Origin: Escherichia phage phi456
Reading direction: 5' to 3' (one strand)
DNA: 64,000 bases
Sequence record: OR339795
Part shown: positions 7,322-54,505 of the stretch, piece after piece
How positions within the stretch are numbered: position 1 is the first letter of the stretch
How the letters are laid out: every line of letters starts with the position of its first letter
Translations under genes and position numbers: made by a program
Notes under the pieces: generated by a model
Told to the model about the DNA's origin: nothing
The model's input: the letters and a program-made list of their open reading frames with translations, nothing else
The model's database searches: none

Positions 7322-10298
7322 TATTTAGCTCCTTTGCCACACCTAATAACAGTTCCAGCAATCCGTCACCATTCATCAGTGATGCGGCAGCGGCCTCTTT
7401 GTCATGATACAACTGAAGAGCCATAGAGAATACTTCCGTTGCTGACGTTTTGGAAATAGTCGGTGATTTCTGCCGAATTTTCCCGGTGTTACTTACTGAG
7501 GCTGGCGGGTATACCTTCGCCATATAAATATTACTCAATCGAGATCTGAAGCACCATTCAGGCTTGCCACGCCCACCGATATTAACGAAAGATGGCTTAT
7601 CCCCTTCAACATTGGCCTTCAGGAATGACCGGGCTTTCTCTAACAAACCAGGGTTACTGTACTCAAGATGATGACCCAGCTCGTGCCACAGTGCACTTGC
7701 ATTTTCATCGTTCAAATTGACAGCAACAACACCATTAAGATTTGCATATGCCCTTCCCTGGTGGTGAACCACCTTTGATAAGGTCGAAATTTTACCGCCG
7801 GTCAGGCGATAAATATCAGCAAGTTCCTTGCGCAGGTCTATCCCACCATTCTGTCCAGCGCGGGCTTCTTCCACTTCTTCCGTGATAAAAGAGTCGGCCC
7901 ACTCAAGAGCTTTTTCTTCAGATACGGATGAGTTTGCGATCGCACTGTTCATGGCAGATAACACTTTCTCGTGGACCGAACCCATTCTTCGCTGATTCAT
8001 TTGCCAGCGTGTCTGCGGGTTATATGAGAATCGCTTAAGTAGTTGGTCAAGCTGCTCAAGTTCTTCTTCACTGACATACCTTTTAGCCTCACCAATAATG
8101 CCAGGGAGAATATTGCCGTTAGGATTAAACGCTCGCGAAAGGAAGAGTTTCAGCGCCCCCATGCCCTCCGATGCTTCAATATCACCAATAACCCGGTTAA
8201 CAATGGCCGCACTCTTCGGATTAGCATCCGCCAACGCTCTGGCTACAATTTGCAGGGACGATACGACCTCACGCTGCATATCAGTCCTGATCTCATCAAT
8301 AAACTCTGGCGTTATGCCGTGCTCTTTAAGGATATCCCTGCCTTCCGCCGTTACCCCATCGATATCACCGACATGTTTATTAACCCGACTTTGCAATGCC
8401 TTAAATGCCTTCAGAATTCCACGGGAATCATCCGCTTTACTAACGGCCTTCCTGAATGCTGGCAAGAAGTCTGAGTTAACCTCATTTTGTTGATCGGCCC
8501 ACTGAATGGAGGCTTCTTTCATCTCGTCCAGAGTCAGATCACCCAACGCGGTATGGTCTGTGAATATGAGCGACAACCTCTGAACCATTTCTGCCAATGG
8601 TGATGCCGAATGCGCCGCGCTAAGGAATGCTTTCACCCTGGTTGGGCGAATGGAAAACCAGTCAATAGCTGGTGGCATATCTCCGTTTTTTATCGCCTGC
8701 GCTATCTCGTCAAAGCCATCGCGCCCAAGGGAAGATGCGTGATTTAACAAGCCGCGAAGTAACGAATTGCTGATACCGAATAATCGGCACCATTTTTTCA
8801 CGTCGGCAACAGGCATTCGAACAAAATGCGCAAGCACTTGTACAAGCTGTTCATCCTGGGGATCTGTGCGGGAAAGCAGCCTGATCAGATGAATAATGTC
8901 TTTGATGCCGGATGCCCGATGTAATAGCAAACTGGTATACGGAGCAACACCGTTGTAACTACCGCCGGAAACGGACTCGAAAAGACCGCCGGATATCCCT
9001 TGCATGCCTTCGTTTTCCAGTTCCTGAGACACCTGGCGAAGGATATCCTGTAACGACACATCGCCGCCGCCAAACATATCCCCCAGCGCCTGGCCCTGGT
9101 GCTGTAACTCATCATTGATACGTTGAGCCATCAACTTAAAGGCGGTGGCCATACGCTTCGCGCTACGGTTATTCGCGACGATGAACAACGCGAGAGCTTT
9201 CACTTCCGGGGCTGTTTCGCTGAACATATCCCCCTGAGCAATAACATCGGTAATATGTTGGCCTGACTCCTTCGATTGCCTTACCAGGTCTACCGCATCT
9301 TTCAATGCCGCCAGCGCCTTTTTATCGAGACTATCCGCTGTCTCAATGCCATCAACAATAGTTGTCACAGCCTGCTTGTGCGCTTCACCTGATAAAGCCT
9401 GCATCTGGACAAAATCATTGGCTGCCGCATTAAGCGCCGTCAGAACATTACGCATATCTGGATCAGGTTCTTCTGCAACCATCCTTACCAGGCGCGCATC
9501 CTTATATGCCTTGGCAAAGATCGCGTTTTGTATACGGTCTACAAGTTGCCGTGTTGGTCGCCCATCTTCAGTTACAAGGCCAGCCGCCTGTGTGGCACCA
9601 ACTTGCGTCATAAATCCGCGAATAAACGCGTTATTACTGCGGCTAAGCAGATCTCCGCTTTCTGACGGGTTAAAAAGCGCCATCATCGCCGGTGTTATGC
9701 TGTCGGCATCAACAAAAGCCTTTTCACTGGCTGCCATTTCCTGGAGATCAGAAATATTTGAGTCCTTGGCAAACTGAACACGGTCAACCTTCGTTAACCG
9801 GCGGCGCACCAGTACCGGAGCCGTCATTGATTCAACCTTTTCAGGCCGTATGCCGAATTCGGTCGCATGTTCAATCAGGTACTCCCGATACCGATCCGCA
9901 TTACCGTCCTGATAGGCTTTAATGATCCCCATGGTCCGCCCATTACCTGACTCAACGGCATTGTCCTCACCAATTATCGGCGCACCATGGCTGGATAAAC
10001 CGGAATCAGTAAGCTGAGCAGGCCGCAAATCTTTGGATATCTGGTTAACCTGAAGAAGGCTGGATGCGCGGGTCCGGTCGCGCGGCTGAAGTTCCTGGGG
10101 ATAGTCAGGATTAATTTTCCCATCCAGAGTATTGGATACCAAAAGAGCTGAGGCATCGACGATATCAAACGCTGTTTTTACCTCGTCTCCCTTCGCTGTC
10201 ACCACATACGAAACCCGCCCATAATCGGGCAGGTTCTTAAGCAGCTCGATCAGCGTTTCTATGCTGGTGGCCATTACCACCTGATCGCTTAAGCTCAT
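7311..10298 (-). CDS. ddrB: DdrB-like antirestriction-associated protein
   Basis: 995-aa ORF in the hdf-darA-ddrA-ddrB order; contains WHELGHHLE (HExxH) near the C-terminal quarter. Confidence 0.5.
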   Translation of the reverse strand: MSLSDQVVMATSIETLIELLKNLPDYGRVSYVVTAKGDEVKTAFDIVDASALLVSNTLDGKINPDYPQELQPRDRTRASSLLQVNQISKDLRPAQLTDSGLSSHGAPIIGEDNAVESGNGRTMGIIKAYQDGNADRYREYLIEHATEFGIRPEKVESMTAPVLVRRRLTKVDRVQFAKDSNISDLQEMAASEKAFVDADSITPAMMALFNPSESGDLLSRSNNAFIRGFMTQVGATQAAGLVTEDGRPTRQLVDRIQNAIFAKAYKDARLVRMVAEEPDPDMRNVLTALNAAANDFVQMQALSGEAHKQAVTTIVDGIETADSLDKKALAALKDAVDLVRQSKESGQHITDVIAQGDMFSETAPEVKALALFIVANNRSAKRMATAFKLMAQRINDELQHQGQALGDMFGGGDVSLQDILRQVSQELENEGMQGISGGLFESVSGGSYNGVAPYTSLLLHRASGIKDIIHLIRLLSRTDPQDEQLVQVLAHFVRMPVADVKKWCRLFGISNSLLRGLLNHASSLGRDGFDEIAQAIKNGDMPPAIDWFSIRPTRVKAFLSAAHSASPLAEMVQRLSLIFTDHTALGDLTLDEMKEASIQWADQQNEVNSDFLPAFRKAVSKADDSRGILKAFKALQSRVNKHVGDIDGVTAEGRDILKEHGITPEFIDEIRTDMQREVVSSLQIVARALADANPKSAAIVNRVIGDIEASEGMGALKLFLSRAFNPNGNILPGIIGEAKRYVSEEELEQLDQLLKRFSYNPQTRWQMNQRRMGSVHEKVLSAMNSAIANSSVSEEKALEWADSFITEEVEEARAGQNGGIDLRKELADIYRLTGGKISTLSKVVHHQGRAYANLNGVVAVNLNDENASALWHELGHHLEYSNPGLLEKARSFLKANVEGDKPSFVNIGGRGKPEWCFRSRLSNIYMAKVYPPASVSNTGKIRQKSPTISKTSATEVFSMALQLYHDKEAAAASLMNGDGLLELLLGVAKELNNAD

Positions 10299-34014: not shown

Positions 34015-35604
34015 TTACTTAATAAGCAGCGGTACGCCCTGGATACGACGGGCTACGCCAGTCGGGCAGCAGGCCCAGACTACTTCCCATTTATCGAATT
34101 CCGCCTGCGTAACTTTCAGCACATACGGTTCTGTACCGTCAGCATCAGGATCACGAGGAGCCACCAGAGCGCCGGAGGCGACAAAGCGATCCAAAAGTTT
34201 GGTCATCCCTTTAGTCAGGCCAGACTCAGTAATACCGTCCGGGTTATGCTTCATCTGTCGGGCTAACTGGACAATGAAACGGCTGATTGCGTTCATCAGG
34301 GATGGGACGTGCTGGAAATGCAGATAGTTGTCCTGCGTGCAGCAAGTTAAAGCATCATCGATGATCATCTGGCCCGAAGTACCTACAGATACTTTATTGA
34401 GTCGGCCCTTGACCATAGCTTCTTCGTCCGGGGTGTCTTCAGGATACAGCGGCTGAAGTGATGCACGAGCAATGACGGCACGTTCTTCACCAGCCGGTGA
34501 GTAATGCCAACCGCCGACATCGGAGTTTTTCTTGACGCCACGAGCTTTCGCCGCATACGCCGCGCCAGACAGACCGAAGACCACGCGGGATTGGGTCCAT
34601 TTGTCTTTGCAGGAGAACGGGAAATGATAGACAGCACAGCTTACATAATCGGTACCAAGTAAACCGGTATCTTCAACAGCAGAGATCGCTTCCGTGTACG
34701 TCAATGTCGGTTTGACATCAAAGAAGCCATCAATCAAGCGATCAGAACAGATATTACCTAACGCAGTGATCGCCGCATTGTCATAGCAACCCAGGCCGAG
34801 AACAGCGGTGTACATGTACGGCGCATTGTTCAGCACTTTCACCGCACGCAGGTAAGCAGCAGTGGAAATGTTCGACTGATCGCCGTTGGTACCGCCAGTG
34901 AACGCCAGCGATTTTTTATTTGTTACTTTCGCCGTCGAAATCAGCTCTTCATTAACAACCGCGCGCAGATATTTAGAACGGGCTTCCAGAGCCGTAGGCA
35001 GATAACACAAGCGGCCCATGTCATCTTTCGCTTCTTCCGCCAAAGACACAGTGTGTGTCTCCAGGGTCGTTACCACACCGAGCGAAGTCGTCTGGGTCAG
35101 TTTTAAGAGGAAGCGTTCATTACCCGCGCTGTCCGCTGTTGCCGTTTCGATGGTTAACTCACGGGTAGGAGAAATACACGGATCACCATCATCAACGTAG
35201 ATAGCAAAGGCTTCGCCGCTATCAAGTTCAATTTCAGAACCGTATGGCAACGCACTGTAAGCCGGTTCGCCTGATTCATCGAACATAATAATCGGGAACT
35301 TCGCATCATCCGGAACAGCACGGACAACATAACCAGACGTTTGCTGAATAGCTTCGTACACATGGCGAATTGGTTCGAACTGTGAGCCGGAGGACGGCTT
35401 CAGCGGTTCGCCGAGAACATCTTCGTAATTGGACTCAGTAACCGCAAGAACAGTAAACGGCTTGCCACGCGCAAATACGCCAATACCAGCCCACAAGCTG
35501 CTATTTAATACAACACCGGTAGATAACGTCGCATCGGCATTGATCGGGCTAACAGCGACACCTGATGCATTACCTAATGACTGTTGAATTGAATATTGAG
35601 ACAT
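34015..35604 (-). CDS. tail sheath protein (P1 gp22-like)
   Basis: 529-aa ORF between the capsid-like gene and smaller tail genes; size and position fit a contractile sheath. Confidence 0.45.
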   Translation of the reverse strand: MSQYSIQQSLGNASGVAVSPINADATLSTGVVLNSSLWAGIGVFARGKPFTVLAVTESNYEDVLGEPLKPSSGSQFEPIRHVYEAIQQTSGYVVRAVPDDAKFPIIMFDESGEPAYSALPYGSEIELDSGEAFAIYVDDGDPCISPTRELTIETATADSAGNERFLLKLTQTTSLGVVTTLETHTVSLAEEAKDDMGRLCYLPTALEARSKYLRAVVNEELISTAKVTNKKSLAFTGGTNGDQSNISTAAYLRAVKVLNNAPYMYTAVLGLGCYDNAAITALGNICSDRLIDGFFDVKPTLTYTEAISAVEDTGLLGTDYVSCAVYHFPFSCKDKWTQSRVVFGLSGAAYAAKARGVKKNSDVGGWHYSPAGEERAVIARASLQPLYPEDTPDEEAMVKGRLNKVSVGTSGQMIIDDALTCCTQDNYLHFQHVPSLMNAISRFIVQLARQMKHNPDGITESGLTKGMTKLLDRFVASGALVAPRDPDADGTEPYVLKVTQAEFDKWEVVWACCPTGVARRIQGVPLLIK

Positions 35605-35618
35605 AACTTTCCCTGTTA

Positions 35619-35640
35619 TGCGCCCCGCACGGGGCGCTAT
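35619..35640 (-). terminator. hairpin between capsid-like and sheath-like genes
   Basis: GCGCCCCGCACGGGGCGC perfect stem. Confidence 0.4.
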
Positions 35641-35663
35641 GTTAAACGGAGAACTTCCCCTGA

Positions 35664-37391
35664 TTACTCAGAGTCACCGGCATCAATCGTGTCGCCGCTT
35701 ATAAAGTTAAGCCCGCCTTTTTTGGCCATTGTCAGCGTTACACGAGTGAAGTAATCAGCGCCGTTGCGTGGGTGCATATCGTTGATAGCCGAACCCCACA
35801 GCGTGGTACGGTTGACCAGCGCCGGAGTGGTCGGATGCTGGAACGGGATGGCCGGGACAGCATCACCAGTCACGAAGCCTGCTTTACCCGGATTTTCATC
35901 ACGGACGTAGCACAGCACATCCATCGAGCTGAACTGAATGTTCTCTGTCGTTAAGTTCTTACAAATACCAGCAGGTACTTCGTACACTTTCACGTTACCG
36001 AACAGGGTACCGATGTAGTGAACATACGGAGTCTGGATATAGTCTTCGGCTGGCTGGAAGAAATCCTTCGGCAACTGTTTGAAGAAAGATGCTGCATCAG
36101 CACCAGCAAACATCCCCATCGCACCAGAAGATTTAACGCGCTCAATAATGTCGCGATATACAGTCTGGAATTTGCCACGAATGATGGTTGCCCATACATC
36201 AAAGGACTGGTTAACCGGCAGAGCGATGTCAAAGGTGACGGTCGCAAGAGTACGCCAGATCATGATGTGAAGACGCAGCATATCCTGTTCATGAGACAGG
36301 TATTCCTTCAGGGTGCGGAACTGTAGGGAACCCAGGTCCAGACCAAATTCACGCTGTGCTTCATACGCCGCCTGTACCGTGTGCTCAGCCGCGATAACGA
36401 ACTGACTTGGGAACAGGGTGTATTTCTTCATTTCGTGGTTGATCAGCGGGATCAGCTCAGGAGCGGCTTCAATATTGATTTCCGTCTCAATTGCGATCTC
36501 AGTGCCTTTATCCGGCGCTTTGGAGAACGACAGGGCAATCTGACCAATGTTGTAGTTCAGAGAGCAGGTAACAGTGATTTGCTCACCAGCAGCATTAGTA
36601 AACGAGTGAAGTAGGCTGCCGGAACCGTTATCAACAACAGACTTAATACGGTTAACGTAGATGTTAGTGCGACCTTTTCGGATTGGTACATTCTGGCCTT
36701 CGAAGTCTTCCATCTTGAAGGTTGCGGTTTTGCTGGTGCCATCGGAGCTTGCCACCAGCACATAGCGGCGACGTAACTGGCTGTACACACCGACGGATTG
36801 CATGTCCAGAACATCACCAGCAGCATAAGAACCAAAAGATGAACCTGCCACGTTAAAGACTTCATAGATGTCGGACTGGTCACGCGTAACCGGAATGAAG
36901 GTACACGCATCAGCGGTAGCTGCCCCCAACTGAACAGGCAGGATCATCGCGAGGAATAAAGGCAGACGCATAACACCGTCAGAAACGCTCATCATCTCTG
37001 CTGCGACGGATTCCAGCATCGCTTTATTAGTGGCATCCATGCTATTGCGGGTGGACTCAATCAGGCAGTTTTCCAGCGTCTGGTGGCAGGAGGCCAGAAT
37101 TTCCGGACGCGGCATAGATTTATGTGCTGCGGCGTAGTCAGCCAGTGCACTTGCCCACGCTGTAGCGATTTGAGCGGTGGCATTATCAGAGATACCCGCA
37201 AAAACCGGGTCTTTACGTGCAGCTTCAAGGATAGATGCGGCACGCGCGGCATCATCTTTAATGAATTGGTTATCAGTACCGAACTGCGCAGTGCTTGCCC
37301 AGCCAAGCACAGCTTTAGAGCGTTTTGCGATATCTGCAATACGATTCTGGTATTCGCGTAAGTTACTCAATTTACTCTTCCTTAAACACAA
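35664..37391 (-). CDS. major capsid protein (P1 gp23-like)
   Basis: 575-aa ORF adjacent to parS, as gene 23 is in P1; assignment by synteny and size. Confidence 0.45.
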   Translation of the reverse strand: MCLRKSKLSNLREYQNRIADIAKRSKAVLGWASTAQFGTDNQFIKDDAARAASILEAARKDPVFAGISDNATAQIATAWASALADYAAAHKSMPRPEILASCHQTLENCLIESTRNSMDATNKAMLESVAAEMMSVSDGVMRLPLFLAMILPVQLGAATADACTFIPVTRDQSDIYEVFNVAGSSFGSYAAGDVLDMQSVGVYSQLRRRYVLVASSDGTSKTATFKMEDFEGQNVPIRKGRTNIYVNRIKSVVDNGSGSLLHSFTNAAGEQITVTCSLNYNIGQIALSFSKAPDKGTEIAIETEINIEAAPELIPLINHEMKKYTLFPSQFVIAAEHTVQAAYEAQREFGLDLGSLQFRTLKEYLSHEQDMLRLHIMIWRTLATVTFDIALPVNQSFDVWATIIRGKFQTVYRDIIERVKSSGAMGMFAGADAASFFKQLPKDFFQPAEDYIQTPYVHYIGTLFGNVKVYEVPAGICKNLTTENIQFSSMDVLCYVRDENPGKAGFVTGDAVPAIPFQHPTTPALVNRTTLWGSAINDMHPRNGADYFTRVTLTMAKKGGLNFISGDTIDAGDSE

Positions 37392-37504
37392 GGCACTTGT
37401 GTGAATCCCTTTTCGGAAGAGATTTTATTGAAAGTCACTTGTTGACTTTCTCGTGACAAGCAATTTTTTTATTTTTTTCGGGAGTAGGGGAGGAAGGTAA
37501 AATC

Positions 37505-37590
37505 CAAGGTGAAATCGTGGCGATTTCACCTTGAAATTTTAGATGGATTTACTTTAAAAACAGTAGTTTAATAGTGAAATTTGAATGGCG
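37505..37590 (-). promoter_or_regulatory. parS: parS partition site (ParB boxes flanking an IHF site)
   Basis: Reverse complement reads TCGCCATTCAAATTTCACTATTAAACTACTGTTTTTAAAGTAAATCCATCTAAAATTTCAAGGTGAAATCGCCACGATTTCAC: ATTTCAC heptamers (box A) and TCGCCA hexamers (box B), matching P1 parS as recalled. Confidence 0.75.
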
Positions 37591-37595
37591 AAAGT

Positions 37596-38597
37596 TTAAG
37601 GCTTCGGCTTTTTATCGAGGCTCTTTCTAAGGATATGCCCAATCATCCTGTCGAGTTCTTCCTGTAGCTCTTTTGAAAGTCGATTAAACTCATAAGAAAA
37701 TGCACGGCCTTTCACGCGCTTCCTTGCAAAGCGATCCTTGTCCTCAAATTTCCATAATTCAGTAACTACGGACTTATCTTTAGAACCTTTATCCGTGAGT
37801 AGTGAAGCTTCCTTTGTTATCAAGCGCAGGATTTTATTTTTAACTTCATCTTCGGCCATTTCTTCAATGGATAAGATGTCGTTTATTTCCGGGGATATGT
37901 TTTGAATAAGCTGATCAAACTCTAAATTCTTGTTCCCCATTTCGTCGCCAACAGCACAAAGCGTTTTGTAGTCCGAAAAGGTTAATTCCGACTGCACAGG
38001 GAAAAGGGCGACTAATTCTTCCGGAGCACTCGCTGCCTGGAGAGCACGCGTGACCTTCGCCTGAGATAGCCCTTCTTTGGCTGCAATATCCTTCTGACTC
38101 ATCCCATCATTTTTCATTCGCATCAAACGCAGACCTATTTCTCGAATGCTGTGCTGCAATGCTGTCTGAACGTCTTTCGCTAAATTTTGCGCTTCCTGAA
38201 CGCTGATCTCCTGGTCCGTGACTAAAACCCGCAACCCTACGTTCTCTAAGATGGCAGAAGCTCGACGCCGGGAACCATCCAAAATTTCAATTTTCCCTGT
38301 AGCCCGTCTAACACCTATTGCAGGGTAAAATTGCTGATGCTTAATAGTGCTTCGGATACTTTTTAATGATTTTGGCGTAAGAGATGCCTGGTCACGCCCG
38401 TTGTTATGCTGATCAACAAAGGTATCGCTTTCTACCTGGTTCGGAGGTATTACCTCTTCAATAAATGTGGCCTGGCGACCAGTTGATAACTTGAATACCT
38501 GCTCGACTCGATCGCCAGAGGCTGAAGAACTATCAAATCCGCTTAATATTGAAGGATTAAGGGTTCGCCCAATTGTTGGTCTGTTTTTCTTTGACAT
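37596..38597 (-). CDS. parB: partition protein ParB
   Basis: 333 aa (P1 ParB size), downstream of parA and next to parS. Confidence 0.9.
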   Translation of the reverse strand: MSKKNRPTIGRTLNPSILSGFDSSSASGDRVEQVFKLSTGRQATFIEEVIPPNQVESDTFVDQHNNGRDQASLTPKSLKSIRSTIKHQQFYPAIGVRRATGKIEILDGSRRRASAILENVGLRVLVTDQEISVQEAQNLAKDVQTALQHSIREIGLRLMRMKNDGMSQKDIAAKEGLSQAKVTRALQAASAPEELVALFPVQSELTFSDYKTLCAVGDEMGNKNLEFDQLIQNISPEINDILSIEEMAEDEVKNKILRLITKEASLLTDKGSKDKSVVTELWKFEDKDRFARKRVKGRAFSYEFNRLSKELQEELDRMIGHILRKSLDKKPKP

Positions 38598-38613
38598 GGG
38601 GGTTTCTTACTCC

Positions 38614-39810
38614 TCAGTTAGATCTGATAAATTCAATACGGTCAAAAACTGCTTTAGCAAAATCTTCCGCAGCAATTCGCGCGTTCTTCAATGCATCAGC
38701 ACTACCAACATACGTTGCCGGGTTAGCTGAAATAACAGTGTCAAAAGACTCGCCGCAGCGTTCAAAACCGTCAAGGCGAGGGAGGACAACATCAAGCATA
38801 TCCCCACCGAACACTTCTTTAGCCAGGCTATGGCAATACTTATGGTCTGCCTTGTTACTCAACTTGGACATAAAACCAATGTTAGTTGCAAGCTGACACT
38901 CGCAGCCTTCATCCGAAATGAGTTTCACCAACTCAGGAAGGCGGGCAACGTATTTAAGCGATGAGTGGAAATCAACCGTTGCAGGCGGCAGAGGTGTAAA
39001 CAGTATATTGGCCGAGGCCAAAGCATTTTTCAGGAAGGCGTCAAGGTGAGGACCACTATCAACGAGGATAAAGTCATAATCGCTCTTCAGCTTATCAATC
39101 ACATTTTCTTTCAGGACTGCATGGATGTTCTGACCCGGTAGATGCTCATTGCACAGCTCTCTCCAATCGGATGCAATAAAGGCATCGTCAATCGACGCAG
39201 GCATAACGTCAACCCCAGGTACAACAGAAGGAACAATAAACTCCTCTAACAGCTCTTCACGGCTTACATTCTGCAACATAGCCTGTGCAGATGTTGCGTT
39301 TACGATACCAATAGAGTGTTTATGGCTTAAAAACATCGTTGCTGAAGATTGCGGATCAAGGTCAATAACCAGAATCCTTAAATCTTCCATCAGAAGATGA
39401 GGATGAGCACGCATTGCATGCGCCAGAGAAACCGTCGATACAGTTTTTGACACACCGCCTTTAAGATTGGAGATGAAAATCACATACGCTTCGCTGTAGC
39501 GATCCCGGTATTTTGGCACTCCGCGATGTTCATATATGTCAATGATGTTCTGAATTGACATCGCATATTTCATTGAAGAGCCAGCAGGGCGTTTATCGAA
39601 AACATAACCCTTTTCTTCCATTTCACTTACGGCATAGTCAACGTTCGCACGAGTCAGTAGAGGCAATTTTGCCAGTGCCGCTTTCGCATAGACCTGGTAA
39701 AACTCGTTCGCGTGTAGCTCATCCTTTTGCAACTGTACTTGTTCAGTCAGAACATTGAGCATTCTATTTGCTCTTTGAGCAACCTTGTGAAGCTGGCTGG
39801 AATCACTCAT
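38614..39810 (-). CDS. parA: partition ATPase ParA
   Basis: 398 aa; deviant Walker A NLKGGVSKTVST; long N-terminal DNA-binding extension as in P1 ParA. Confidence 0.9.
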   Translation of the reverse strand: MSDSSQLHKVAQRANRMLNVLTEQVQLQKDELHANEFYQVYAKAALAKLPLLTRANVDYAVSEMEEKGYVFDKRPAGSSMKYAMSIQNIIDIYEHRGVPKYRDRYSEAYVIFISNLKGGVSKTVSTVSLAHAMRAHPHLLMEDLRILVIDLDPQSSATMFLSHKHSIGIVNATSAQAMLQNVSREELLEEFIVPSVVPGVDVMPASIDDAFIASDWRELCNEHLPGQNIHAVLKENVIDKLKSDYDFILVDSGPHLDAFLKNALASANILFTPLPPATVDFHSSLKYVARLPELVKLISDEGCECQLATNIGFMSKLSNKADHKYCHSLAKEVFGGDMLDVVLPRLDGFERCGESFDTVISANPATYVGSADALKNARIAAEDFAKAVFDRIEFIRSN

Positions 39811-39956
39811 CGAAAGCCATCCTTTATGCTGTATTTTTGAATTTAATTAAAAATGCTGCATAAAATAATAATGTATGCGTAGATGCTTGTACATAGCATT
39901 CTCTGCATGTTTGGTTCATTTTGCACGATTGAGAGTTACAAGGAGGGCACAAAAAA

Positions 39957-39971
39957 GCCCCGTTCAGGGGC
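39957..39971 (-). terminator. rho-independent terminator after the T5orf172 gene
   Basis: Minus strand reads GCCCCTGAACGGGGC followed by TTTTTTGTG, immediately upstream of the parA promoter region. Confidence 0.6.
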
Positions 39972-39978
39972 ATCAGTG

Positions 39979-40788
39979 TTATTTGCTAAGAGCAGCGAAT
40001 AATCGTTCGAAATCGATAGTATCTATAGCACGCGTAAGCGCCGGAAGTTCAGCCTCAAAGTACCCGTGTCGATCGTAAAAGAAGGGACCGAAGAGCGAGG
40101 CATGTTGGATTCTACTTCGCCCCAGCCCGGACACACAGTTAAGCCCATTACCGGCTAAAAGGCTAAAAAACTTCTCTGGATTATCGTGGTAAAGCTGGGA
40201 ATCAATGGTGGCGGTTAACTCTTCCATAGGGAAGCACACCCGCCCTGTATCCCAGGGATATTTAGTCCGAAGCATAAACATTGCTTTCAGCAATTCACAT
40301 TGAGCGCGGATCGCGTCCGGTTCATAGCCAGATATGGAGACATAAGCCACGTCCCTCATTCCTGCGTCATCTTTGAAAGTCACGATAGAAGTAACATCCA
40401 GCTCTTTTTCGAAAGAGCAAGCAGCATCTACTGGACGCTGAAGTAAATCATTCGACTTAATGCGCTCGAGAATCCCTCCCCACATATCATTTAGATATTC
40501 GATATGAGCCAAAACCTTATCAAGACACTCTCGTGTAAACCATTCAGTATGCCCGCCACCGGCGCTTTTCTCCCACGGCGCATTCCAGGGGAAAAAGGTT
40601 GCGTGTAAAGCCCGCTCAAGATTAACCATTGCCAAACGCGTACCACGATAGACCCGTGAAAGCGCAAAATCGGGACTCACTTGTAGCCCTTTAAACCGTG
40701 CCAATGGACCACATGAAATGCCGATTTTAAAAGTATCTCCGTTCTCTGGCACCAGAACGTAGAGGTAGTGTTGTTTCTCTTCTTGCAT
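39979..40788 (-). CDS. T5orf172 (GIY-YIG-like) domain protein, cargo gene between parA and incA iterons
   Basis: 269 aa; N-terminus YLYVLVPENGDTFKIGIS...LERALHATF...GGHTEWF matches the T5orf172 signature; C-terminal 170 aa unassigned. Confidence 0.6.
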   Translation of the reverse strand: MQEEKQHYLYVLVPENGDTFKIGISCGPLARFKGLQVSPDFALSRVYRGTRLAMVNLERALHATFFPWNAPWEKSAGGGHTEWFTRECLDKVLAHIEYLNDMWGGILERIKSNDLLQRPVDAACSFEKELDVTSIVTFKDDAGMRDVAYVSISGYEPDAIRAQCELLKAMFMLRTKYPWDTGRVCFPMEELTATIDSQLYHDNPEKFFSLLAGNGLNCVSGLGRSRIQHASLFGPFFYDRHGYFEAELPALTRAIDTIDFERLFAALSK

Positions 40789-40819
40789 ATCAATACCACT
40801 GCTTGATGAGAACCGCGCA

Positions 40820-41080
40820 AATGTTGACTATGCGCGAAGGTTAATGTGAATAGTTGACTATGCGCGATGTGACTACAGTCAAAAGTTGACTGTAGTCGAT
40901 TTAACTCCACCAAAGATCGACTATGTAAGATATTGTCGGGAGAAACGTTGACTATACGCGATGAAATGCCCCTAAAAGCCATCTCAATAGCGACTTGCAG
41001 AATATTGACGCCAGCAAAAATCCACCAGCGTCAACGAATGTCGCCTATAGTCAACTTCTCGCTATCGCATATAGTCAATA
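40820..41080. repeat. incA-like iteron cluster downstream of repA
   Basis: At least 7 copies of a GTTGACTATGCGCGA-like element in both orientations (e.g. 40823, 40853, 40885, 40947, 41042, 41067). Confidence 0.65.
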
Positions 41081-42001
41081 TTATGGATTGCGCTTATGGA
41101 TCTGGAAGCCGATTTTCCTGCCGTTTTTTATCTCTGAAAATTTAAGATATTCAATAGCTTCCAAATCTTTCATGGCTTTTCTGATAACGCTATTTTGCAC
41201 GCTAACGGATGATTTGAGATTAAGCCTCGCTCTAAGGCGCTCAATGCTGACAGGTGCCGGGTTGGCGGGTAGAGCCTCAAAGAATGTATACAGTACCTTG
41301 GCCGTCTCTTTGCGCCCTAGTTTATCCAGCATCTTCAGCTTCAGGATTCGCTTATAGTCAACATAGTAAAGTTCAGATAGCTGTTTCTGCGGCTGGATCT
41401 CGATAACATCAAGCTCGGTATTCAGGCTGCTATATGCCAACAAGTTGACGTTAATGTTATTGAGATGACCTTTTGCCGCCGGGAAGCGGAATTTGACAAC
41501 TGTCTGCTGAATGCGTGTCAGAGAGTCATCAATACTTTTACGGAACGCCTTTGAAAGGCGCTTACGTGGATAGCCGCATCGATCGGCAAACTCGGAGAAT
41601 GGCAGGGTGATTATGCCGTCATCATCAGGTGCGTAGTCAAACAACGCGGAGGTTATGCCCACCCACACCTTAAAATCAGTATCCATATCCAGGCGTGGAC
41701 CATGAATTTCAATTCCCTCATAGCCTTCCTGCTCAACAATTTTGAGGCTTGATAGTTCTTCAGTTGCGTTCGTTGTGTTTGTTGTAACTGACGATCCGCG
41801 ACGTAGCGCCACATTGGTAGATTTTAAGGTTGGCACAAACACACCTAAGCGCAACAAAGCGATGGGTTGTATAGTGCTGTTGTTATTGGGCTTCAGGCTG
41901 TGGATTTCTCCTGTATTTCCTGCAACTTCTTCAACGCTAAGGAAGCCTTTACTTTCTTCCGGCATCACGGTTTCTCCATGTGTGGCGCGGCCTGACGTCA
42001 A
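41081..42001 (-). CDS. repA: iteron-binding replication initiator RepA
   Basis: 306 aa; QPIALLRLGVFVP...GPRLDMDTDFKVWVGI...RLRARLNLKSSV resembles the P1/RepFIB RepA family; flanked by iterons on both sides. Confidence 0.8.
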   Translation of the reverse strand: MTSGRATHGETVMPEESKGFLSVEEVAGNTGEIHSLKPNNNSTIQPIALLRLGVFVPTLKSTNVALRRGSSVTTNTTNATEELSSLKIVEQEGYEGIEIHGPRLDMDTDFKVWVGITSALFDYAPDDDGIITLPFSEFADRCGYPRKRLSKAFRKSIDDSLTRIQQTVVKFRFPAAKGHLNNINVNLLAYSSLNTELDVIEIQPQKQLSELYYVDYKRILKLKMLDKLGRKETAKVLYTFFEALPANPAPVSIERLRARLNLKSSVSVQNSVIRKAMKDLEAIEYLKFSEIKNGRKIGFQIHKRNP

Positions 42002-42044
42002 TTTGGATGGCTGTTATCAACAGCTGTGAATATTCAGACTCTAA

Positions 42045-42260
42045 AATCGCTTACAGTCAATGTTTCTGTCGCGTATAGTCAACAATAAATCGCGTGCAGT
42101 CAACAATAAATCGTGCACAGTCAACATAAAATCGCGTATAGTCAATGTTGATCCCATTTCAGGCCAGTAATGACGCGGCTTACAGCGATCCGGGATCTTC
42201 TTTGGATCTTCCTAGGTTCTCTTTAGGATCTGTTTATTGGATCTATGCTGTGGATAAGTT
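42045..42260. promoter_or_regulatory. plasmid origin (oriR-like): 5 direct iterons, GATC cluster, DnaA boxes
   Basis: Iterons CGCGTATAGTCAACA-like at about 21-bp spacing (42048-42147); five GATC between 42187 and 42243; perfect DnaA box TGTGGATAA at 42249-42257 and near-box TTATCAACA at about 42014. Confidence 0.65.
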
Positions 42261-42479
42261 GAATAAACCGGCCAACAAAGCCGGTTGGAAGGAAGTCATA
42301 TTATTCTACGCTTTCGATAAGAAGACCATGTTCATAACATTTAAGCTCATCGCCTTCATACAGGAATTGGTATCCAACACCACCATCTTCATGGACATTA
42401 GGGAATAACTCATAACTCACTGAAGTGAACCGCCCCGGGAATCCTGGAGACTAAACTTCCTGAGAAAGAGGTAAACAGG

Positions 42480-42806
42480 ATGACTAAAAATACTCGTTTT
42501 TCCCCCGAAGTCCGTCAACGGGCAGTTCGTATGGTTCTGGAAAGTCAGGGCGAATATGACTCACAATGGGCGGCAATTTGTTCCATTGCTCCAAAGATTG
42601 GCTGTACGCCAGAGACTCTGCGCGTCTGGGTTCGCCAGCATGAGCGGGATACCGGGGGCGGTGATGGTGGGCTCACCACCGCTGAACGTCAGCGTCTGAA
42701 AGAGCTGGAGCGTGAAAATCGTGAACTGCGCCGCAGTAACGATATCCTTCGCCAGGCTTCCGCTTATTTTGCGAAGGCGGAGTTCGACCGCCTCTGGAAA
42801 AAATGA
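42480..42806 (+). CDS. IS629 transposase OrfA
   Basis: 108 aa [21 protein letters not shown]... HTH and leucine zipper. Confidence 0.85.
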
Positions 42807-43591
42807 TGCCACTGCTGGATAAGCTGCGTGAGCAGTACGGGGTCGGACCGGTATGCAGCGAACTGCATATTGCCCCGTCAACGTATTACCACTGTCAGCA
42901 ACAGCGACATCATCCGGATAAACGCAGTGCCCGTGCGCAGCGCGATGACTGGCTGAAGAAAGAGATACTGCGCGTATACGATGAAAATCATCAGGTGTAC
43001 GGTGTGCGTAAAGTCTGGCGTCAGTTGTTACGGGAAGGTATCAGGGTGGCCAGATGCACTGTGGCACGTCTCATGGCGGTTATGGGACTTGCCGGTGTTC
43101 TCCGGGGTAAAAAGGTCCGTACGACCATCAGCCGGAAAGCCGTTGCCGCAGGCGACCGCGTAAACCGTCAGTTCGTGGCAGAACGTCCTGACCAGCTGTG
43201 GGTAGCTGATTTTACTTACGTCAGCACATGGCAGGGCTTCGTCTATGTGGCGTTCATCATTGATGTATTTGCCGGATACATCGTGGGGTGGCGAGTCTCA
43301 TCGTCTATGGAAACGACATTCGTGCTGGATGCACTGGAGCAGGCGTTGTGGGCCCGCCGGCCGTCCGGCACAATCCACCACAGTGATAAAGGTTCTCAGT
43401 ATGTATCGCTGGCCTACACGCAGCGGCTTAAGGAAGCCGGCTTACTGGCCTCAACAGGAAGTACTGGTGACTCGTATGACAACGCGATGGCGGAGAGCAT
43501 CAATGGTCTTTACAAAGCGGAGGTAATACACCGTAAGAGTTGGAAAAACCGGACAGAAGTGGAACTGGCCACACTAACGTGGGTGGACTGG
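42803..43591 (+). pseudogene. IS629 transposase OrfB, truncated by IS2 insertion
   Basis: DDE transposase frame diverges after ...TLTWVDW at the IS2 boundary; the remaining C-terminus ([28 protein letters not shown]) is found at 44923-45030. Confidence 0.8.
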
Positions 43592-43602
43592 TGGATTTGC
43601 CC

Positions 43603-44508
43603 CTATATTTCCAGACACCTGTTATCACTTAACCCATTACTGGCCTGCTGCCGCAGATATTCCCGTGGCGAGCGATAACCCAGTGCACTATGCGGATGCC
43701 ATTCGTTATAATGCTCGAACGCCTCTGCAAGGTTCTTTGCTGCCGTTAACCCGTCTGGTTTAGGCATGATACTGATGTAGTCACGCTTTATCGTTTTCAC
43801 GAAGCTCTCTGCTATGCCGTTACTCTCTGGACTCCGCACCGCCGTGTTCTTCGGTTCAAGCCCCAACATCCGGGCAAACTGCCGTGTTTCATTAGCCCGG
43901 TAGCATGAACCATTATCCGTCAGCCACTCTACTGGAGACGCCGGAAGCTCGTTGCCGAAGCGGCGTTCCACCGCTCCCAGCATTACGTCCTGTACTGTTT
44001 CACTGTCGAAGCCGCCCGTAGTGACTGCCCAGTGCAGTGCCTCACGGTCACAGCAGTCCAGCGCGAACGTGACTCGCAGTTTTTCTCCGTTATCACAGCG
44101 GAACTCGAACCCGTCAGAGCACCATCGTTGATTGCTTTCTTTCACGGCCACTTTGCCAGTATGTGCCCGTTTCGATGGCGGTACAGCGGTTTTTCGCTCA
44201 AGCAACAGCGCATTCTGGCGCATGATCCGGTAAACACGTTTGGCATTGATCGCAGGCATACCATCAAGTTCGGCCTGTCTGCGAAGCAGCGCCCATACCC
44301 GACGATAACCATACGTGGGCAGCTCTCCGATAACATGGTGTATACGGAGAAGCACATCCGTATCATCTGAGTGACGGCTGCGGCGACCATCTTTCCAGTC
44401 ATCGGTTCGTCTGAGAATTACGTGCAACTGCGCACGCGACACCCGGAGACAACGGCTGACTAAGCTTACTCCCCATCCCCGGGCAATAAGGGCGCGTGCG
44501 CTATCCAC
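43603..44508 (-). CDS. insD: IS2 transposase InsD (OrfB)
   Basis: 301-aa DDE transposase recognised as IS2 OrfB. Confidence 0.9.
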
Positions 44509-44876
44509 TTTTTTGCACGCCCGTATTCAACGGCTTCTTTAAGGAGTTCATTTTCCATCGTTTTTTTGCCGAGCAGGCGCTGGAGTTCTTTAATCTGCTT
44601 CATGGCAGCAGCAAGTTCAGAGGCAGGAACGACCTGCTCTCCTGCGGCCACAGCAGTAAGACTTCCCTCCTGGTATTGCTTGCGCCAGAGAAATAACTGG
44701 CTGGCTGCCACACCGTGTTGCCGGGCAACAAGGGAGACCGTCATTCCCGGTTCAAAACTCTGCTGAACAATAGCGATCTTTTCCTGTGTAGTACGCCGTC
44801 TGCGTTTCTCCGGTCCTAAGACATCAATCATCTGCTCTCCAATGACTAGTCTAAAAACTAGTATTAAGACTATCAC
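44466..44876 (-). CDS. insC: IS2 InsC (OrfA)
   Basis: 136 aa [24 protein letters not shown]... Confidence 0.9.
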
Positions 44877-45071
44877 TTATTTAAGTGATATTGGTTGTCT
44901 GGAGATTCAGGGGGCCAGTCTAACTGGTATAACAATCGACGATTGCTGGAAAGGCTGGGCCATATTCCTCCGGCAGAAGCAGAAAAAGCTTATTATGCTT
45001 CCATCGGAAATACTGATCTGGCAGCCTGAGTTCACAGATAAAACACTCTCCAGGAAACCCGGGGCGGTTCA

Positions 45072-45254
45072 AACTGCAGTTGCCATGTTTTACGGCAGTG
45101 AGAGCAGAGATAGCGCTGATGTCCGGCAGTGCTTTTGCCGTTACGCACCACCCCGTCAGTAGCTGAACAGGAGGGACAGCTGATAGAAACAGAAGCCACT
45201 GGAGCACCTCAAAAACACCATCATACACTAAATCAGTAAGTTGGCAGCATCACC
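45072..45254 (-). mobile_element. IS1 left-end fragment (about 183 bp including the inverted repeat)
   Basis: Sequence identical in kind to the insA-proximal end of the full IS1 copies, ending ...GTTGGCAGCATCACC; truncated by IS629. Confidence 0.7.
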
Positions 45255-45462
45255 CAGGTGCTGGTGAGAATGAGTGCAAGGACGGCTGAAGAATATTTTT
45301 TCATACCAACACCTTCTGTAGGTTAAAAAGAGAGGAGCTTTTCCGGAGTTATATTAATAATTCATTCATCAGAGAAAACTGTTTTTTTGTTACGGCAATA
45401 ATAATGAGACAATTCCTGGTAAGCCCGGTGCCGTTCTACGGTTGCACCGGGAGGGCTGGAAC

Positions 45463-45777
45463 TCAGTGCGGAGATTTTTTACCATCCTGGCGATATAAAT
45501 GATCATGTGCTGTTTTGCGATCCCTGTATATGCCCATTTCTTTTTCCGTCTGTATTGCAGAACTGCGTAATAATCTGAAGGAGAACTCTTCCTGGCTGGT
45601 TGCTCTCTGTGATTTCATTTTTGCACGTTTCAGGCAGTGCTGTATCCGTCTCTGGATACAGATCCGATCATCTTCCTGCAGGTAGTTCAGCAGCAATTCC
45701 TGCCAGCGTGCAGCGGCTCTGCGCCATAATCCCCGCTGTTTGAGCTCTTCAGCTTTTTTATCAGTAATCATATTCAC
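45463..45777 (-). CDS. PerC/Pch-family transcriptional regulator-like protein
   Basis: 104 aa; KKAEELKQRGLWRRAAARWQELL matches the PerC-family N-terminal signature as recalled. Confidence 0.55.
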   Translation of the reverse strand: MNMITDKKAEELKQRGLWRRAAARWQELLLNYLQEDDRICIQRRIQHCLKRAKMKSQRATSQEEFSFRLLRSSAIQTEKEMGIYRDRKTAHDHLYRQDGKKSPH

Positions 45778-45794
45778 CTCTGCTCTGGTCGGTC

Positions 45795-46595
45795 ATGCTT
45801 TCTTCCCGGTATGTTATAGTTATTAAGATACTTTTGTCCCTGTTCTGTTCCGGAGTGAACATGATTTTTGTCTGTTCTGTTGTACTGGCTGACAAGGCAT
45901 TCACCCTGCAGTTTGCCGGGAAAATGCTGTCCCTTTCTGCAGGAGATGTGCTTCTGATTGATGATACTGATCGTGAGGATTTTCAGCCTCATGCTGCGCA
46001 TATCACTGAGGTGCGGCTGGATGAAAATATCATCCGCAGATATCTGGAGAGTTGTGGCGGCAACCGGGAGGCCGACAACACGGTTTCTTCTGGTTTCATC
46101 AGAGTGGCCTTTGCTCATCCTGCGTTGTTGCGTGACGTTATGCATCATCTGAATTCGGGAGGATTTGTTCATCCCGGATTTTCCGAGCAGATGTTTTTTT
46201 CCTGCATTGCTGTCTTTGCATCAAAAAAAGGCTTTCTTCCTTTGTTGCTGGGCGGAATGCTTTCTGTGGCCGGGAGAGTGAGGCATATCATCTGTACTGA
46301 CTTTTCACGCCAGTGGAAGCTGCGGGATGTCAGCAGTCGTTTGTATATGAGTGAAAGTCAGCTGAAAAAGAAACTGAAGGAAGAAGGATGTTCGTTCACC
46401 GGAGTGCTTCTGGATGTGAGAATGGGCTATGCACGCCGTCTGTTACAGGCCCGTCTGCCGGTCAACAGGGTGGCCGCGCAGTGTGGTTATGTAAGCACAT
46501 CTTATTTTATCTGCGTGTTCAGGGAATGTTTTGGCGTCACGCCTCACCGGATGCTGGCGCTTCAGGAGCACGGGCAGCATAAAAGTGAATGCTGA
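45795..46595 (+). CDS. AraC/XylS-family transcriptional regulator
   Basis: C-terminal dual HTH (...RLLQARLPVNRVAAQCGYVSTSYFICVFRECFGVTPHRM); alternative start at Met 45861; divergent from the PerC-like gene. Confidence 0.75.
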   Translation: MLSSRYVIVIKILLSLFCSGVNMIFVCSVVLADKAFTLQFAGKMLSLSAGDVLLIDDTDREDFQPHAAHITEVRLDENIIRRYLESCGGNREADNTVSSGFIRVAFAHPALLRDVMHHLNSGGFVHPGFSEQMFFSCIAVFASKKGFLPLLLGGMLSVAGRVRHIICTDFSRQWKLRDVSSRLYMSESQLKKKLKEEGCSFTGVLLDVRMGYARRLLQARLPVNRVAAQCGYVSTSYFICVFRECFGVTPHRMLALQEHGQHKSEC

Positions 46596-46754
46596 GTTTG
46601 AATTATTCTGAAGAACGGCGGGCATTTTATGGAAACGGCACATTTCCGTGTCTCTGTGGTCATTCCCGATTGCTGTTGACGCATCGCCACTCACCGGAAA
46701 TGTGCCGGAATATTTTAATCGTTCTTCACCGTCTGTGAAGGTCCTGTGCTTACA

Positions 46755-46950
46755 TTACTGAGCGGAAAATGACCTCAATTTCCTCCTGTGTAGCCTGAAT
46801 CGGGTTTGTCAGACCACATGCATCCTTCAGGGCATTAGCGGCCAGAACAGGGATATCCTCTTCTCTGACGTTCAGGGCTTTCAGACCTGTCGGGATATTC
46901 ACTTTTCCGGCCAGTTCCCTGATTGCAGATATACTGTCAGCGCCAGTGAT
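46755..46950 (-). pseudogene. C-terminal fragment of an iron-containing alcohol dehydrogenase-like gene
   Basis: Minus-strand translation ...[45 protein letters not shown] then stop; N-terminal part is cut by the IS end at 46951. Confidence 0.3.
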
Positions 46951-48420
<1,470 letters not shown>

Positions 48421-48677
48421 GCGTTGACAGCGGGTTCCTGAGTCCGGTGAAGCGCCGGTTACTGGAAAATGTTGTGTACGTCATAACAGAAACGGAGAGA
48501 AAAACGGCGATGCAAATCAGGCGGAGAAGGGTGTATCAGCGGTTACTGAAGGTTGACCCGCTGAAGTGCATCCTGTGCGGAGGTCAGATGCGGTTTACGG
48601 GGCTGAAGCGGGGCTACCGTCTGGCAGAGCTGGTCATGATGCATGAGCCACTGGCACGACAGCGGGTATACAGCTGA
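48421..48677 (+). pseudogene. possible transposase C-terminal fragment (Cys-rich)
   Basis: C-terminal part of ORF 48324..48677, ...PLKCILCGGQMRFTG...; family not assignable with confidence. Confidence 0.2.
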
Positions 48678-48773
48678 GAGCCGCAGAGGGGAAGTTGCGT
48701 CCATTTTTTGAGGAATGGAGCAAAAAATCATCACAGATATAAAAAATCAATCAATGAAAGCCATTTAATTGCC

Positions 48774-53240
<4,467 letters not shown>

Positions 53241-53737
53241 ACTGTTTTTTCTTTAGTGATGCATTTTTTATCAACCATACAAGCACATTATTTCATTGAT
53301 ACCAATCACATCAGGATGAATGTTTTTTCTCAATAGAAATAAGTGTCTTTATTCCTTACTAATTTATTCTGGTTATTCCTCTTATCCAGACGTCTCGTGA
53401 TACTCCCTGTATTTATTATAGAGTATATATATGTACTGCGTTTAAATCATGAAGACGACAACCTGTTTTACATAAATTATTCCTAAGTATTTTTCCAGAG
53501 AAGACCTAGGTATAATGATGTGCACTGTCTGGTTTTCTTACAACTGACTTAGCGATCTGCATATCCGTGATAACGCCTGAATAAATAGGACGAGAGAACT
53601 CTTAACCAAATAATCTAACACTTTTAATCGACAGGAATTAAAAACCCGGGGAGGTTAAAAAAACACAAAAAAATGGTTGTTTATTCAACTCTGGTTACGT
53701 ACCATGAGGACTGCATCCACAATGCACCGGCAATTAA

Positions 53738-54505
53738 GGTAATGACTCCAACTTATTGATAGTGTTTTATGTTCAGATAATGCCCGATGACTTTGTCATG
53801 CAGCTCCACCGATTTTGAGAACGACAGCGACTTCCGTCCCAGCCGTGCCAGGTGCTGCCTCAGATTCAGGTTATGCCGCTCAATTCGCTGCGTATATCGC
53901 TTGCTGATTACGTGCAGCTTTCCCTTCAGGCGGGATTCATACAGCGGCCAGCCATCCGTCATCCATATCACCACGTCAAAGGGTGACAGCAGGCTCATAA
54001 GACGCCCCAGCGTCGCCATAGTGCGTTCACCGAATACGTGCGCAACAACCGTCTTCCGGAGACTGTCATACGCGTAAAACAGCCAGCGCTGGCGCGATTT
54101 AGCCCCGACGTATCCCCACTGTTCGTCCATTTCCGCGCAGACGATGACGTCACTGCCCGGCTGTATGCGCGAGGTTACCGACTGCGGCCTGAGTTTTTTA
54201 AATAGCGGAAAATCGTGTTGAGGCCAACGCCCATAATGCGGGCTGTTGCCCGGCATCCAACGCCATTCATGGCCATATCAATGATTTTCTGGTGCGTACC
54301 GGGTTGAGAAGCGGTGTAAGTGAACTGCAGTTGCCATGTTTTACGGCAGTGAGAGCAGAGATAGCGCTGATGTCCGGCAGTGCTTTTGCCGTTACGCACC
54401 ACCCCGTCAGTAGCTGAACAGGAGGGAGAGCTGATAGAAACAGAAGCCACTGGAGCACCTCAAAAACACCATCATACACTAAATCAGTAAGTTGGCAGCA
54501 TCACC
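53738..54505 (-). mobile_element. IS1 (768 bp), copy B
   Basis: Same orientation as copy A; insB 53753..54256, insA 54175..54450. Confidence 0.9.

Follow-up and report, generated by a model that had tools for sequence, protein, structure and literature searches.

Why does a gene for a nuclease-like protein stand between the partition operon and the replication-control iterons of a P1-like phage-plasmid, at a position where P1 itself has none? We addressed this question for Escherichia phage phi456, using a 64,000-nucleotide (nt) stretch of sequence record OR339795, hereafter called the window, in which an open reading frame (ORF) of 269 amino acids (aa) lies between the parA promoter and a set of incA-like iterons. 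In E. coli and Salmonella, P1-like phage-plasmids frequently carry resistance genes, and typing distinguishes two replicon types among them, IncY and p0111. The original prediction, made from the letters of the window, held that a T5orf172/GIY-YIG-like gene had been inserted into the partition and replication core and might serve as a single-gene defense, exclusion, or addiction factor. Our own answer is a tentative one: the gene may encode a sequence-directed DNA endonuclease of the free-standing homing type, which was inherited with the p0111 replicon cassette as its last gene and can be dispensed with for plasmid replication and partition.

The ORF is read from the minus strand, and its product begins with MQEEKQHYLYVLVPENGDTFKIGIS and includes the motif GGGHTEWF. 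The gene and the parts of its protein are laid out as follows.

39979 to 40788, minus strand: nuclease gene, encoding a two-domain protein (T5orf172/GIY-YIG-type nuclease domain, linker, and predicted winged-helix domain), assigned from the ORF, Pfam PF10544, phrog_2876, and the RefSeq name
40474 to 40788, minus strand: T5orf172 nuclease domain, codons 1 to 105 (YLYVL ... FKIGIS ... R31 ... H62 ... TEWF)
40408 to 40473, minus strand: putative flexible linker, codons 106 to 127, with an AlphaFold2 predicted local distance difference test score (pLDDT) below 50 at residues 115 to 127
39982 to 40407, minus strand: predicted winged-helix domain, codons 128 to 269, with no sequence relatives outside the family

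The assignment of the N terminus to T5orf172, which had been made from a short signature, was borne out by a hidden Markov model (HMM) search. The Pfam profile PF10544 matched residues 8 to 85 over profile positions 2 to 87 of 101, with a score of 27.5 bits, above the gathering cut-off of 20 (E value of 4.7e-6). Across the four lineages of the gene described below, which share only 25 to 44% identity, eight residues never vary (Y8, Y10, F20, K21, G23, R31, H62, and E82), and these residues are in register with the GIY, YIG, Arg, and Glu motifs, E82 being the metal-binding Glu by motif. The predicted fold of the domain is the alpha/beta fold of GIY-YIG nucleases, and the motif register agrees with that of the GIY-YIG protein 1ywl, a match that is nonsignificant by itself. 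Over its full length the protein matches phrog_2876, and its RefSeq name is "GIY-YIG nuclease family protein"; NCBIfam contained no match to it. Distant homologues of the N terminus, which are T5orf172 proteins of about 290 to 330 aa with unrelated C termini, were found at three further loci (L008, L009, and L010), whose contexts are a phage-like region, where the gene adjoins helix-turn-helix regulators; an island in a chromosome that also carries Mrr_cat and WYL/WCX genes; and a conjugative-plasmid region, where the gene is flanked by umuDC-like genes and a relaxase.

The C-terminal part had been left unassigned by the original prediction, and by sequence it is indeed unassignable. It has no Pfam match, and family members were the only relatives returned by a phmmer search of 1.84 billion representative sequences, by a profile search of 5.8 billion protein clusters, and by an HMM search of N-terminal homologues of about 270 to 300 aa. 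By structure prediction, which had been proposed as a check, the domain is a winged helix; no significant Foldseek match was obtained. When the domain was modeled alone, its pLDDT was 75 and its predicted template modeling score was 0.70, and its structural matches were exclusively winged-helix domains: the oriT-binding protein TcpK (score of 6.3), a Rep WH1 domain (6h24; 5.3, with 99 residues aligned), JetB (5.2), the MCM8 winged helix (4.8), RepE (4.4), pPS10 RepA (4.3), and RctB (4.2). In the Foldseek search against viral models, where nothing reached significance, the match of highest probability was the COG5527 plasmid replication initiator (probability of 0.87, E value of 0.08). We treat the likeness to Rep WH1 domains as a lead rather than an established result. 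We also considered whether the domain derives by capture from the RepA of the element itself, in the manner of the nuclease Odn of phage ICP1, and rejected this, as BLASTP and hhalign comparisons with five P1-like RepA proteins revealed no similarity. On the evidence of these models, the protein is probably a nuclease tethered through a flexible segment (residues 115 to 127) to a predicted winged-helix DNA-binding domain (about residues 128 to 269), which is the pairing of a nuclease with a separate DNA-binding domain that is expected of a homing gene.

The surroundings of the gene were compared with those in P1 and P7. The following features of the window enter into that comparison.

37596 to 38597, minus strand: parB, product 100% identical to P1 ParB
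38614 to 39810, minus strand: parA, product 99.7% identical to P1 ParA
39865 to 39893, minus strand: par operon promoter (TGTACA, 17 nt, TATTAT), which matches the P1 Ppar annotation and lies within a P1-identical segment
39957 to 39971, minus strand: GC-rich, intrinsic terminator-like hairpin GCCCCTGAACGGGGC followed by TTTTTT, 8 nt past the stop codon of the nuclease gene and on the same strand
40823 to 41079, both orientations (four copies and two copies): incA-like iteron array with the core GTTGACTATACGCGA, at least six copies
41081 to 41965, minus strand: repA of p0111 type, 294 aa, Rep_3 family (Pfam Rep3_C and Rep3_N)
42047 to 42146, no strand assigned: incC-like origin iterons, five copies at a spacing of 21 to 22 bp
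39913 to 42162, no strand assigned: replicon cassette standing in place of the P1 spacer, incA, repA, and incC iterons, delimited by the ends of P1 identity and colinear with RCS47

The start codon of repA was adopted from RefSeq RCS47 and PLSDB rows. Much of the earlier description of this locus held up, including the near-identity of ParA and ParB to their P1 counterparts and the placement of a gene with its own terminator between the parA promoter and the iterons, the nearest of which ends 34 nt upstream of the ATG. The nuclease gene has the same orientation as parA and parB, and no partner ORF was present either in the 168 bp between it and parA or in the 34 bp between its ATG and the nearest iteron. 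The view of the gene as an insertion did not hold up. From 35000 to 39912 the window is 99.06% identical to P1 DNA; this identity breaks off at 39912, 66 bp beyond the stop codon of the nuclease gene, and P1 homology is found again, at 82%, from 42163, in the Dam/DnaA part of oriR. Because P1 homology stops and resumes at these two points, the nuclease gene is part of a swapped cassette rather than a separate insertion. The cassette, which contains the five origin iterons, repA, the incA-like iterons, and the nuclease gene, is colinear with RCS47 at 98.8% identity, and SJ46, JL22, and other phage-plasmids have an equal arrangement. It is the known p0111 replicon type, with the nuclease gene as its distal member, and its RepA is 42% identical to P1 RepA and 84% identical to the RepA of a related locus, L004. 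Neither P1 nor P7 has a gene at the corresponding position: the par promoter and incA of P1 are separated by 214 bp of unrelated noncoding DNA, and the interval from parA to incA in P7 measures 109 bp. The p0111 type differs from P1, then, by a linked nuclease gene in addition to its RepA and its iterons.

Two further possibilities were rejected. A remnant of the gene in the 214-bp spacer of P1 was sought with tblastn and with local nucleotide alignments of the intervals from the four lineages, and the similarity was at chance level. A foreign base composition was likewise discounted, the G+C content of the gene (47.5%) being no anomaly against that of the window (47.4%). Rfam contained no known RNA element around the gene, its sole match being an IS3 frameshift pseudoknot further to the right. 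As for the iterons, a copy with one mismatch to the core, GTTGACTATAAGCGA, lies within the repA coding sequence at 41348 to 41362 and is kept in L004 and in a second related locus, L003. At two loci from IMG/VR (L020 and L034) the incA-like interval is 30 bp shorter than at other p0111-type loci, a difference of one iteron unit, which suggests a copy number polymorphism of the array.

We then asked how widely the gene occurs. It is found in 401 PLSDB plasmids, a number close to that of plasmids with a p0111-type repA (399), while a P1/IncY repA is found in 374. When PLSDB was searched with the nuclease protein by tblastn, no homologue was detected outside the p0111 set except for one weak N-terminal match in a Cupriavidus plasmid, so that the 374 IncY plasmids, by implication, lack it. 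The counts and this search together indicate that the presence of the gene tracks the replicon type in the common enterobacterial population. The P0010-type gene, one of the divergent homologues described next, yielded only cross-matches to the p0111-type gene among PLSDB plasmids.

Besides the lineage of the window, only three full-length lineages (P0004, P0010, and P0011) were recovered from the 5.8 billion protein clusters and 1.84 billion representatives, and over the full alignment these are 44%, 27%, and 25% identical to the window protein, respectively. All three occupy the same slot, between the repA gene with its iterons and parA (at L004, at L005 and L006 from Salmonella enterica, and at L007), and in each of the four lineages the nuclease gene lies 25 to 35 nt past the last iteron. 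These homologues, together with the 401 PLSDB plasmids, rule out a strain-specific addition; at the same time, with P1 and P7 lacking it, the gene is not common to all P1-like genomes. Pairwise comparisons show how the parts of the region relate to one another. The window and L004 have RepA proteins that are 84% identical, with the same iteron core, nuclease proteins that are 44% identical, and ParA proteins that are 89% identical. P1, without the gene, and L005 have RepA proteins that are 83% identical, with P1-type iterons in both, and ParA proteins that are 89% identical. L004 and L005 have RepA proteins that are only 41% identical and nuclease proteins that are 28% identical, with ParA proteins that are 99.7% identical, and their homology picks up again just past the nuclease gene. 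Judged from these alignments, the nuclease gene moves with the rep cassette, the exchange boundary lies between the gene and the par promoter, and the gene diverges much faster than RepA. The slot is filled in several divergent lineages, with P1 and P7 as the ones without a gene. An intergenic position combined with presence or absence among relatives, the p0111 type, L004, L005/L006, and L007 having the gene and P1 and P7 lacking it, is what would be expected of a homing gene.

Two of these lineages call for comment. At L004, the called product P0004 (311 aa) begins inside the iteron array (8001 to 8123), giving a repeated "AYSQH" peptide; its true start is probably M42, the residue that lines up with the rest of the family. 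L007, a metagenome contig, is P1-like and has a third type of RepA, about 45% identical to both P1 and p0111 RepA, along with a ParA of 401 aa and a ParB of 321 aa, lengths close to those of P7, its own lineage of the nuclease gene, and an iteron sequence that differs.

The selective constraint on the gene was examined at 51 loci, comprising 44 from IMG/VR, five from PLSDB, RCS47, and one GTDB genome, and the ratio of nonsynonymous to synonymous polymorphism (pN/pS) was computed on intact copies together with the window allele. The values for the three genes were as follows.

repA: intact at 50 of 51 loci; pN/pS of 0.02
nuclease gene: intact at 40 of 50 scorable loci, with one more cut by a contig end; pN/pS of 0.38
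parA: intact at 44 of 50 loci, with one copy frameshifted and five short only of the last 2 nt of the BLAST alignment; pN/pS of 0.01

The pN/pS of the nuclease gene is therefore about 20 to 40 times that of repA and parA, and 10 of its 50 scorable copies are disrupted. These disruptions represent at least five independent inactivations among the 51 loci, namely, S112* (five IMG/VR loci), W68* (L056), a frameshift (L014), an interruption after nt 294 (L059), and Q228*, a CAA-to-TAA change that deletes the last 42 residues (L037, phage SJ46); in phage 673R5 as well, the gene is split by a frameshift. Recurrent degeneration of this kind is a further feature of homing genes. In a set of six alleles, the pairwise ratio of nonsynonymous to synonymous substitution rates (dN/dS) ranged from 0.2 to 1.3 for the nuclease gene and was no greater than 0.03 for repA, zero for parA, and no greater than 0.07 for parB, and 17 of the 20 variable residues were at or beyond position 105. 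A rearranged relative bears on the same point. L003, a 93.7-kb E. coli plasmid (CP042620.1), has a RepA that is 84% identical and the same iteron core, and it carries neither the nuclease gene nor parA beside incA, a place occupied by tail genes; rearrangement of a P1-like element may have put its replicon elsewhere. Because of the disrupted copies, the relaxed selection, and the absence of the gene from L003 despite its having the same iterons, the gene is dispensable for replication, partition, and the phage cycle. It nevertheless keeps some constraint, and its catalytic residues persist across deep divergence. A role in addiction, which the original prediction had included, or in maintenance is unlikely, being contradicted by the frequency of pseudogenes and by the lack of a partner gene; neither purifying selection as strong as that on rep and par nor a toxin-antitoxin pair was found.

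Recombination within the p0111 type was also apparent. Single-nucleotide polymorphism profiles are mosaic, with frequent breakpoints across the whole region: L019 equals the window across the origin, repA, incA, and the nuclease gene and diverges from about the 3' end of the gene, L053 equals it through repA and diverges from incA onward, and other loci switch within repA or the nuclease gene.

It is because of the nuclease-linker-DNA-binding layout, the solitary intergenic position beside essential genes, the variable presence, the location at an exchange border, the rapid evolution mainly in the DNA-binding half, and the recurrent inactivation that we favor a homing-type endonuclease. T5orf172 homing endonuclease genes have been described as variable in presence, prone to frameshifts, and located at boundaries of phage genetic exchange (PMC10448857). 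If two related P1-like genomes met in one cell, the enzyme would cut a specific site in the genome without the gene, and the cut would either destroy the rival or be repaired from the carrier. Both results would favor the gene and the linked repA-iteron cassette, and the outcome would be homing or marker exclusion between incompatible relatives. Among the roles first suggested for the gene, exclusion is the most plausible, in the form of competition between related elements.

How such a gene might be expressed was examined with a consensus promoter scan, which found no match directly upstream of the nuclease gene in the window, L005, or L007 and, in L004, a single weak match some 160 bp upstream; promoter-match counts did not exceed those of shuffled controls. 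No terminator was predicted between repA and the nuclease gene, except for an inverted-iteron hairpin in L005, and terminators follow the nuclease gene in the window and L007. With no upstream promoter and no intervening terminator, cotranscription with the RepA-autoregulated repA is possible, and the gene could be transcribed by read-through from repA. Such read-through from the RepA-repressed promoter would produce a burst of expression upon entry into a new cell.

Several observations weigh against a homing-type endonuclease. The known T5orf172 homing endonucleases mostly carry zinc-finger domains of the CapR/DUF723 type, not a winged helix (PMC10448857). In PLSDB the presence or absence of the gene matches the replicon type exactly, none of the p0111-type plasmids having been seen with a clean empty site, and this pattern fits simple linkage in a swapped module as well as it fits drive by a nuclease. 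Finally, the flanks of the gene-less allele differ greatly: the par side is 99% identical to P1, the rep side (iterons and repA) is unalignable in DNA, and the origin is 82% identical. Since P1, without the gene, is not homologous in DNA to the carrier on the rep side, homing of the classical two-flank kind could reach P1 only by way of the distant homology in the origin (82%, from 42163).

The winged-helix prediction and the linkage to the replicon together raise the question of whether the target might be a replicon. One such proposal is a weapon like Odn: the winged helix would recognize the origin or iterons of a competing replicon (a satellite, for instance, or a P1-type rival), which the nuclease would then cut. 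The carrier's origin would be spared because the gene is linked to a repA-iteron cassette of its own. Odn provides a precedent for such nucleases targeting iteron origins (PMC8263062), but this reading is unlikely. The DNA-binding domain is not recognizably homologous to the origin-binding domain of an initiator, as hhalign gave a probability of 0.2% against P1-like RepA and no similarity to any Rep was detected in Pfam or the large protein sets. The Rep structural matches, moreover, score no better than those of generic winged helices such as TcpK and JetB, and the Foldseek match was nonsignificant.

Similarly unlikely is a single-gene antiphage defense or superinfection exclusion nuclease that shields the lysogen from unrelated phages. 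Such a role was part of the original prediction, which had pointed to the occurrence of nuclease-like domains of this kind in defense islands. The gene, however, matched no family in PADLOC-DB 2.0 at E values up to 10 and none in NCBIfam, it has no sensor or partner gene, and it lies in a fixed, replicon-tied slot in four divergent lineages instead of a variable cargo hotspot. The defense suggestion is therefore left without support from any model.

A more elaborate version of the replicon-directed proposal, which we regard as improbable, would make the gene a replicon-linked incompatibility weapon. The gene would be cotranscribed with repA and derepressed in a RepA-free cell, its Rep-like winged helix would target the origin or iterons of a resident rival of P1 type, and the nuclease would cut there. 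If true, passive incompatibility would become active displacement, which would explain why repA-iteron-nuclease cassettes are swapped as units and why the p0111 cassette is present in about half of P1-like plasmids.

It is equally improbable that the gene is a decaying passenger, that is, a once-active homing endonuclease gene which became fixed in the cassette and is now functionless and drifting to loss. The disruption of 10 of 50 scorable copies and the elevated pN/pS are what this would predict, but a pN/pS of 0.38 still falls far short of 1, the gene is undamaged in about 80% of copies, and full-length homologues with conserved catalytic residues occupy the same slot at 25 to 44% identity, a persistence that requires long-term purifying selection. 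Least probable of all is a domesticated nuclease-fold DNA-binding protein that regulates incA, the par promoter, or repA without cutting, for which the repressor PLE CapR, itself a T5orf172 protein (PMC8096241), the position of the gene between incA and the par promoter just after the last iteron in four lineages, and possible cotranscription with repA can be cited, but which is countered by the strict conservation of the catalytic residues across the lineages, from which we argue that catalysis is retained, by the self-maintenance of P1, P7, the 374 IncY plasmids, and the nonsense and frameshift alleles without an intact gene, by the lack of such a gene in L003, whose iterons are the same and whose RepA is 84% identical, and by a pN/pS about 20 to 40 times that of the genes that would be regulated.

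Beyond the replicon, the window departs from its relatives. Synteny with P1 and RCS47 ends shortly after oriR, at 42425, the point at which upfA would start. The site is taken up by an IS3-family element, with orfA/orfB at 42480 to 43678 and an ALIL frameshift pseudoknot at 42761 to 42877 (121 bits), and a second insertion sequence lies on the minus strand at 43603 to 44876. The segment from 45000 to 54000 is a cargo island next to the replicon. It matches pieces of many large E. coli plasmids, and besides additional insertion sequences its annotation includes an autotransporter outer-membrane protein, a PerC-family regulator, and a c-type lysozyme inhibitor.

The annotated gene and the p0111/P1 dimorphism of the replicon cassette were already known. 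What is new here is the conserved slot in four lineages, the linkage of the gene to the whole cassette, the prediction of a winged helix, the relaxed selection, and the recurrent loss; our literature search found no paper linking T5orf172 or GIY-YIG proteins to P1-like phage-plasmids. If the homing-type nuclease we propose acts on related genomes, it would be the plasmid-borne counterpart of the T5orf172 homing and antireplicon nucleases of lytic phages, and it could explain the turnover of replicon cassettes and the competition among phage-plasmids. If it does not, the gene is one more uncharacterized selfish nuclease gene. In either case, annotation should label it neither as a maintenance gene nor as a defense system, and it is often a pseudogene, as in the reference phage SJ46.

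The nearest records are those of the same protein. phrog_2876, RCS47 YP_009624912.1, and JL22 gp57 are 98 to 100% identical to it, and gp57 was reported in the JL22 paper to accompany repA' (p0111); these records hold no function, no analysis of the C-terminal domain, and no comparison across lineages. Among characterized systems, the free-standing T5orf172 genes of ICP1 and T5-like phages (PMC10448857), I-TevI, and the T4 Seg proteins have in common with the phi456 gene a T5orf172/GIY-YIG catalytic domain. They also share with it the tethering of a nuclease to a DNA-binding module, the occurrence as a lone intergenic gene by essential genes, variable presence in close relatives, frequent inactivation, and a position at an exchange boundary. 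They differ in that their DNA-binding modules are CapR/DUF723/DUF4397 zinc fingers or, in I-TevI, a zinc finger with a helix-turn-helix, whereas a winged helix is predicted here, and in that their host module is a lytic-phage gene cluster rather than a plasmid iteron replicon, homing in the present case being a reading of the sequence. CapR of PLE (PMC8096241) is likewise a T5orf172 protein on a mobile element with a sequence-specific DNA-binding domain, which for the phi456 protein is predicted, but CapR is a domesticated repressor with a zinc-finger domain, whereas the phi456 protein belongs to a family that conserves its catalytic residues and shows no sign of a regulatory role. ICP1 Odn (Gp88; PMC8263062) shares with the phi456 protein a T5orf172 nuclease combined with a separate DNA-binding domain, together with a link to iteron-replicon conflicts and the exchange of replicon modules. 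In Odn, however, the DNA-binding domain shares 42% identity with the RepA_N domain of the RepA that it targets, whereas the phi456 protein has no sequence similarity to a Rep and only a weak fold resemblance to WH1 domains of the Rep_3 type. The order of the domains differs as well, the nuclease being C-terminal in Odn and N-terminal both in the phi456 protein and in I-TevI.

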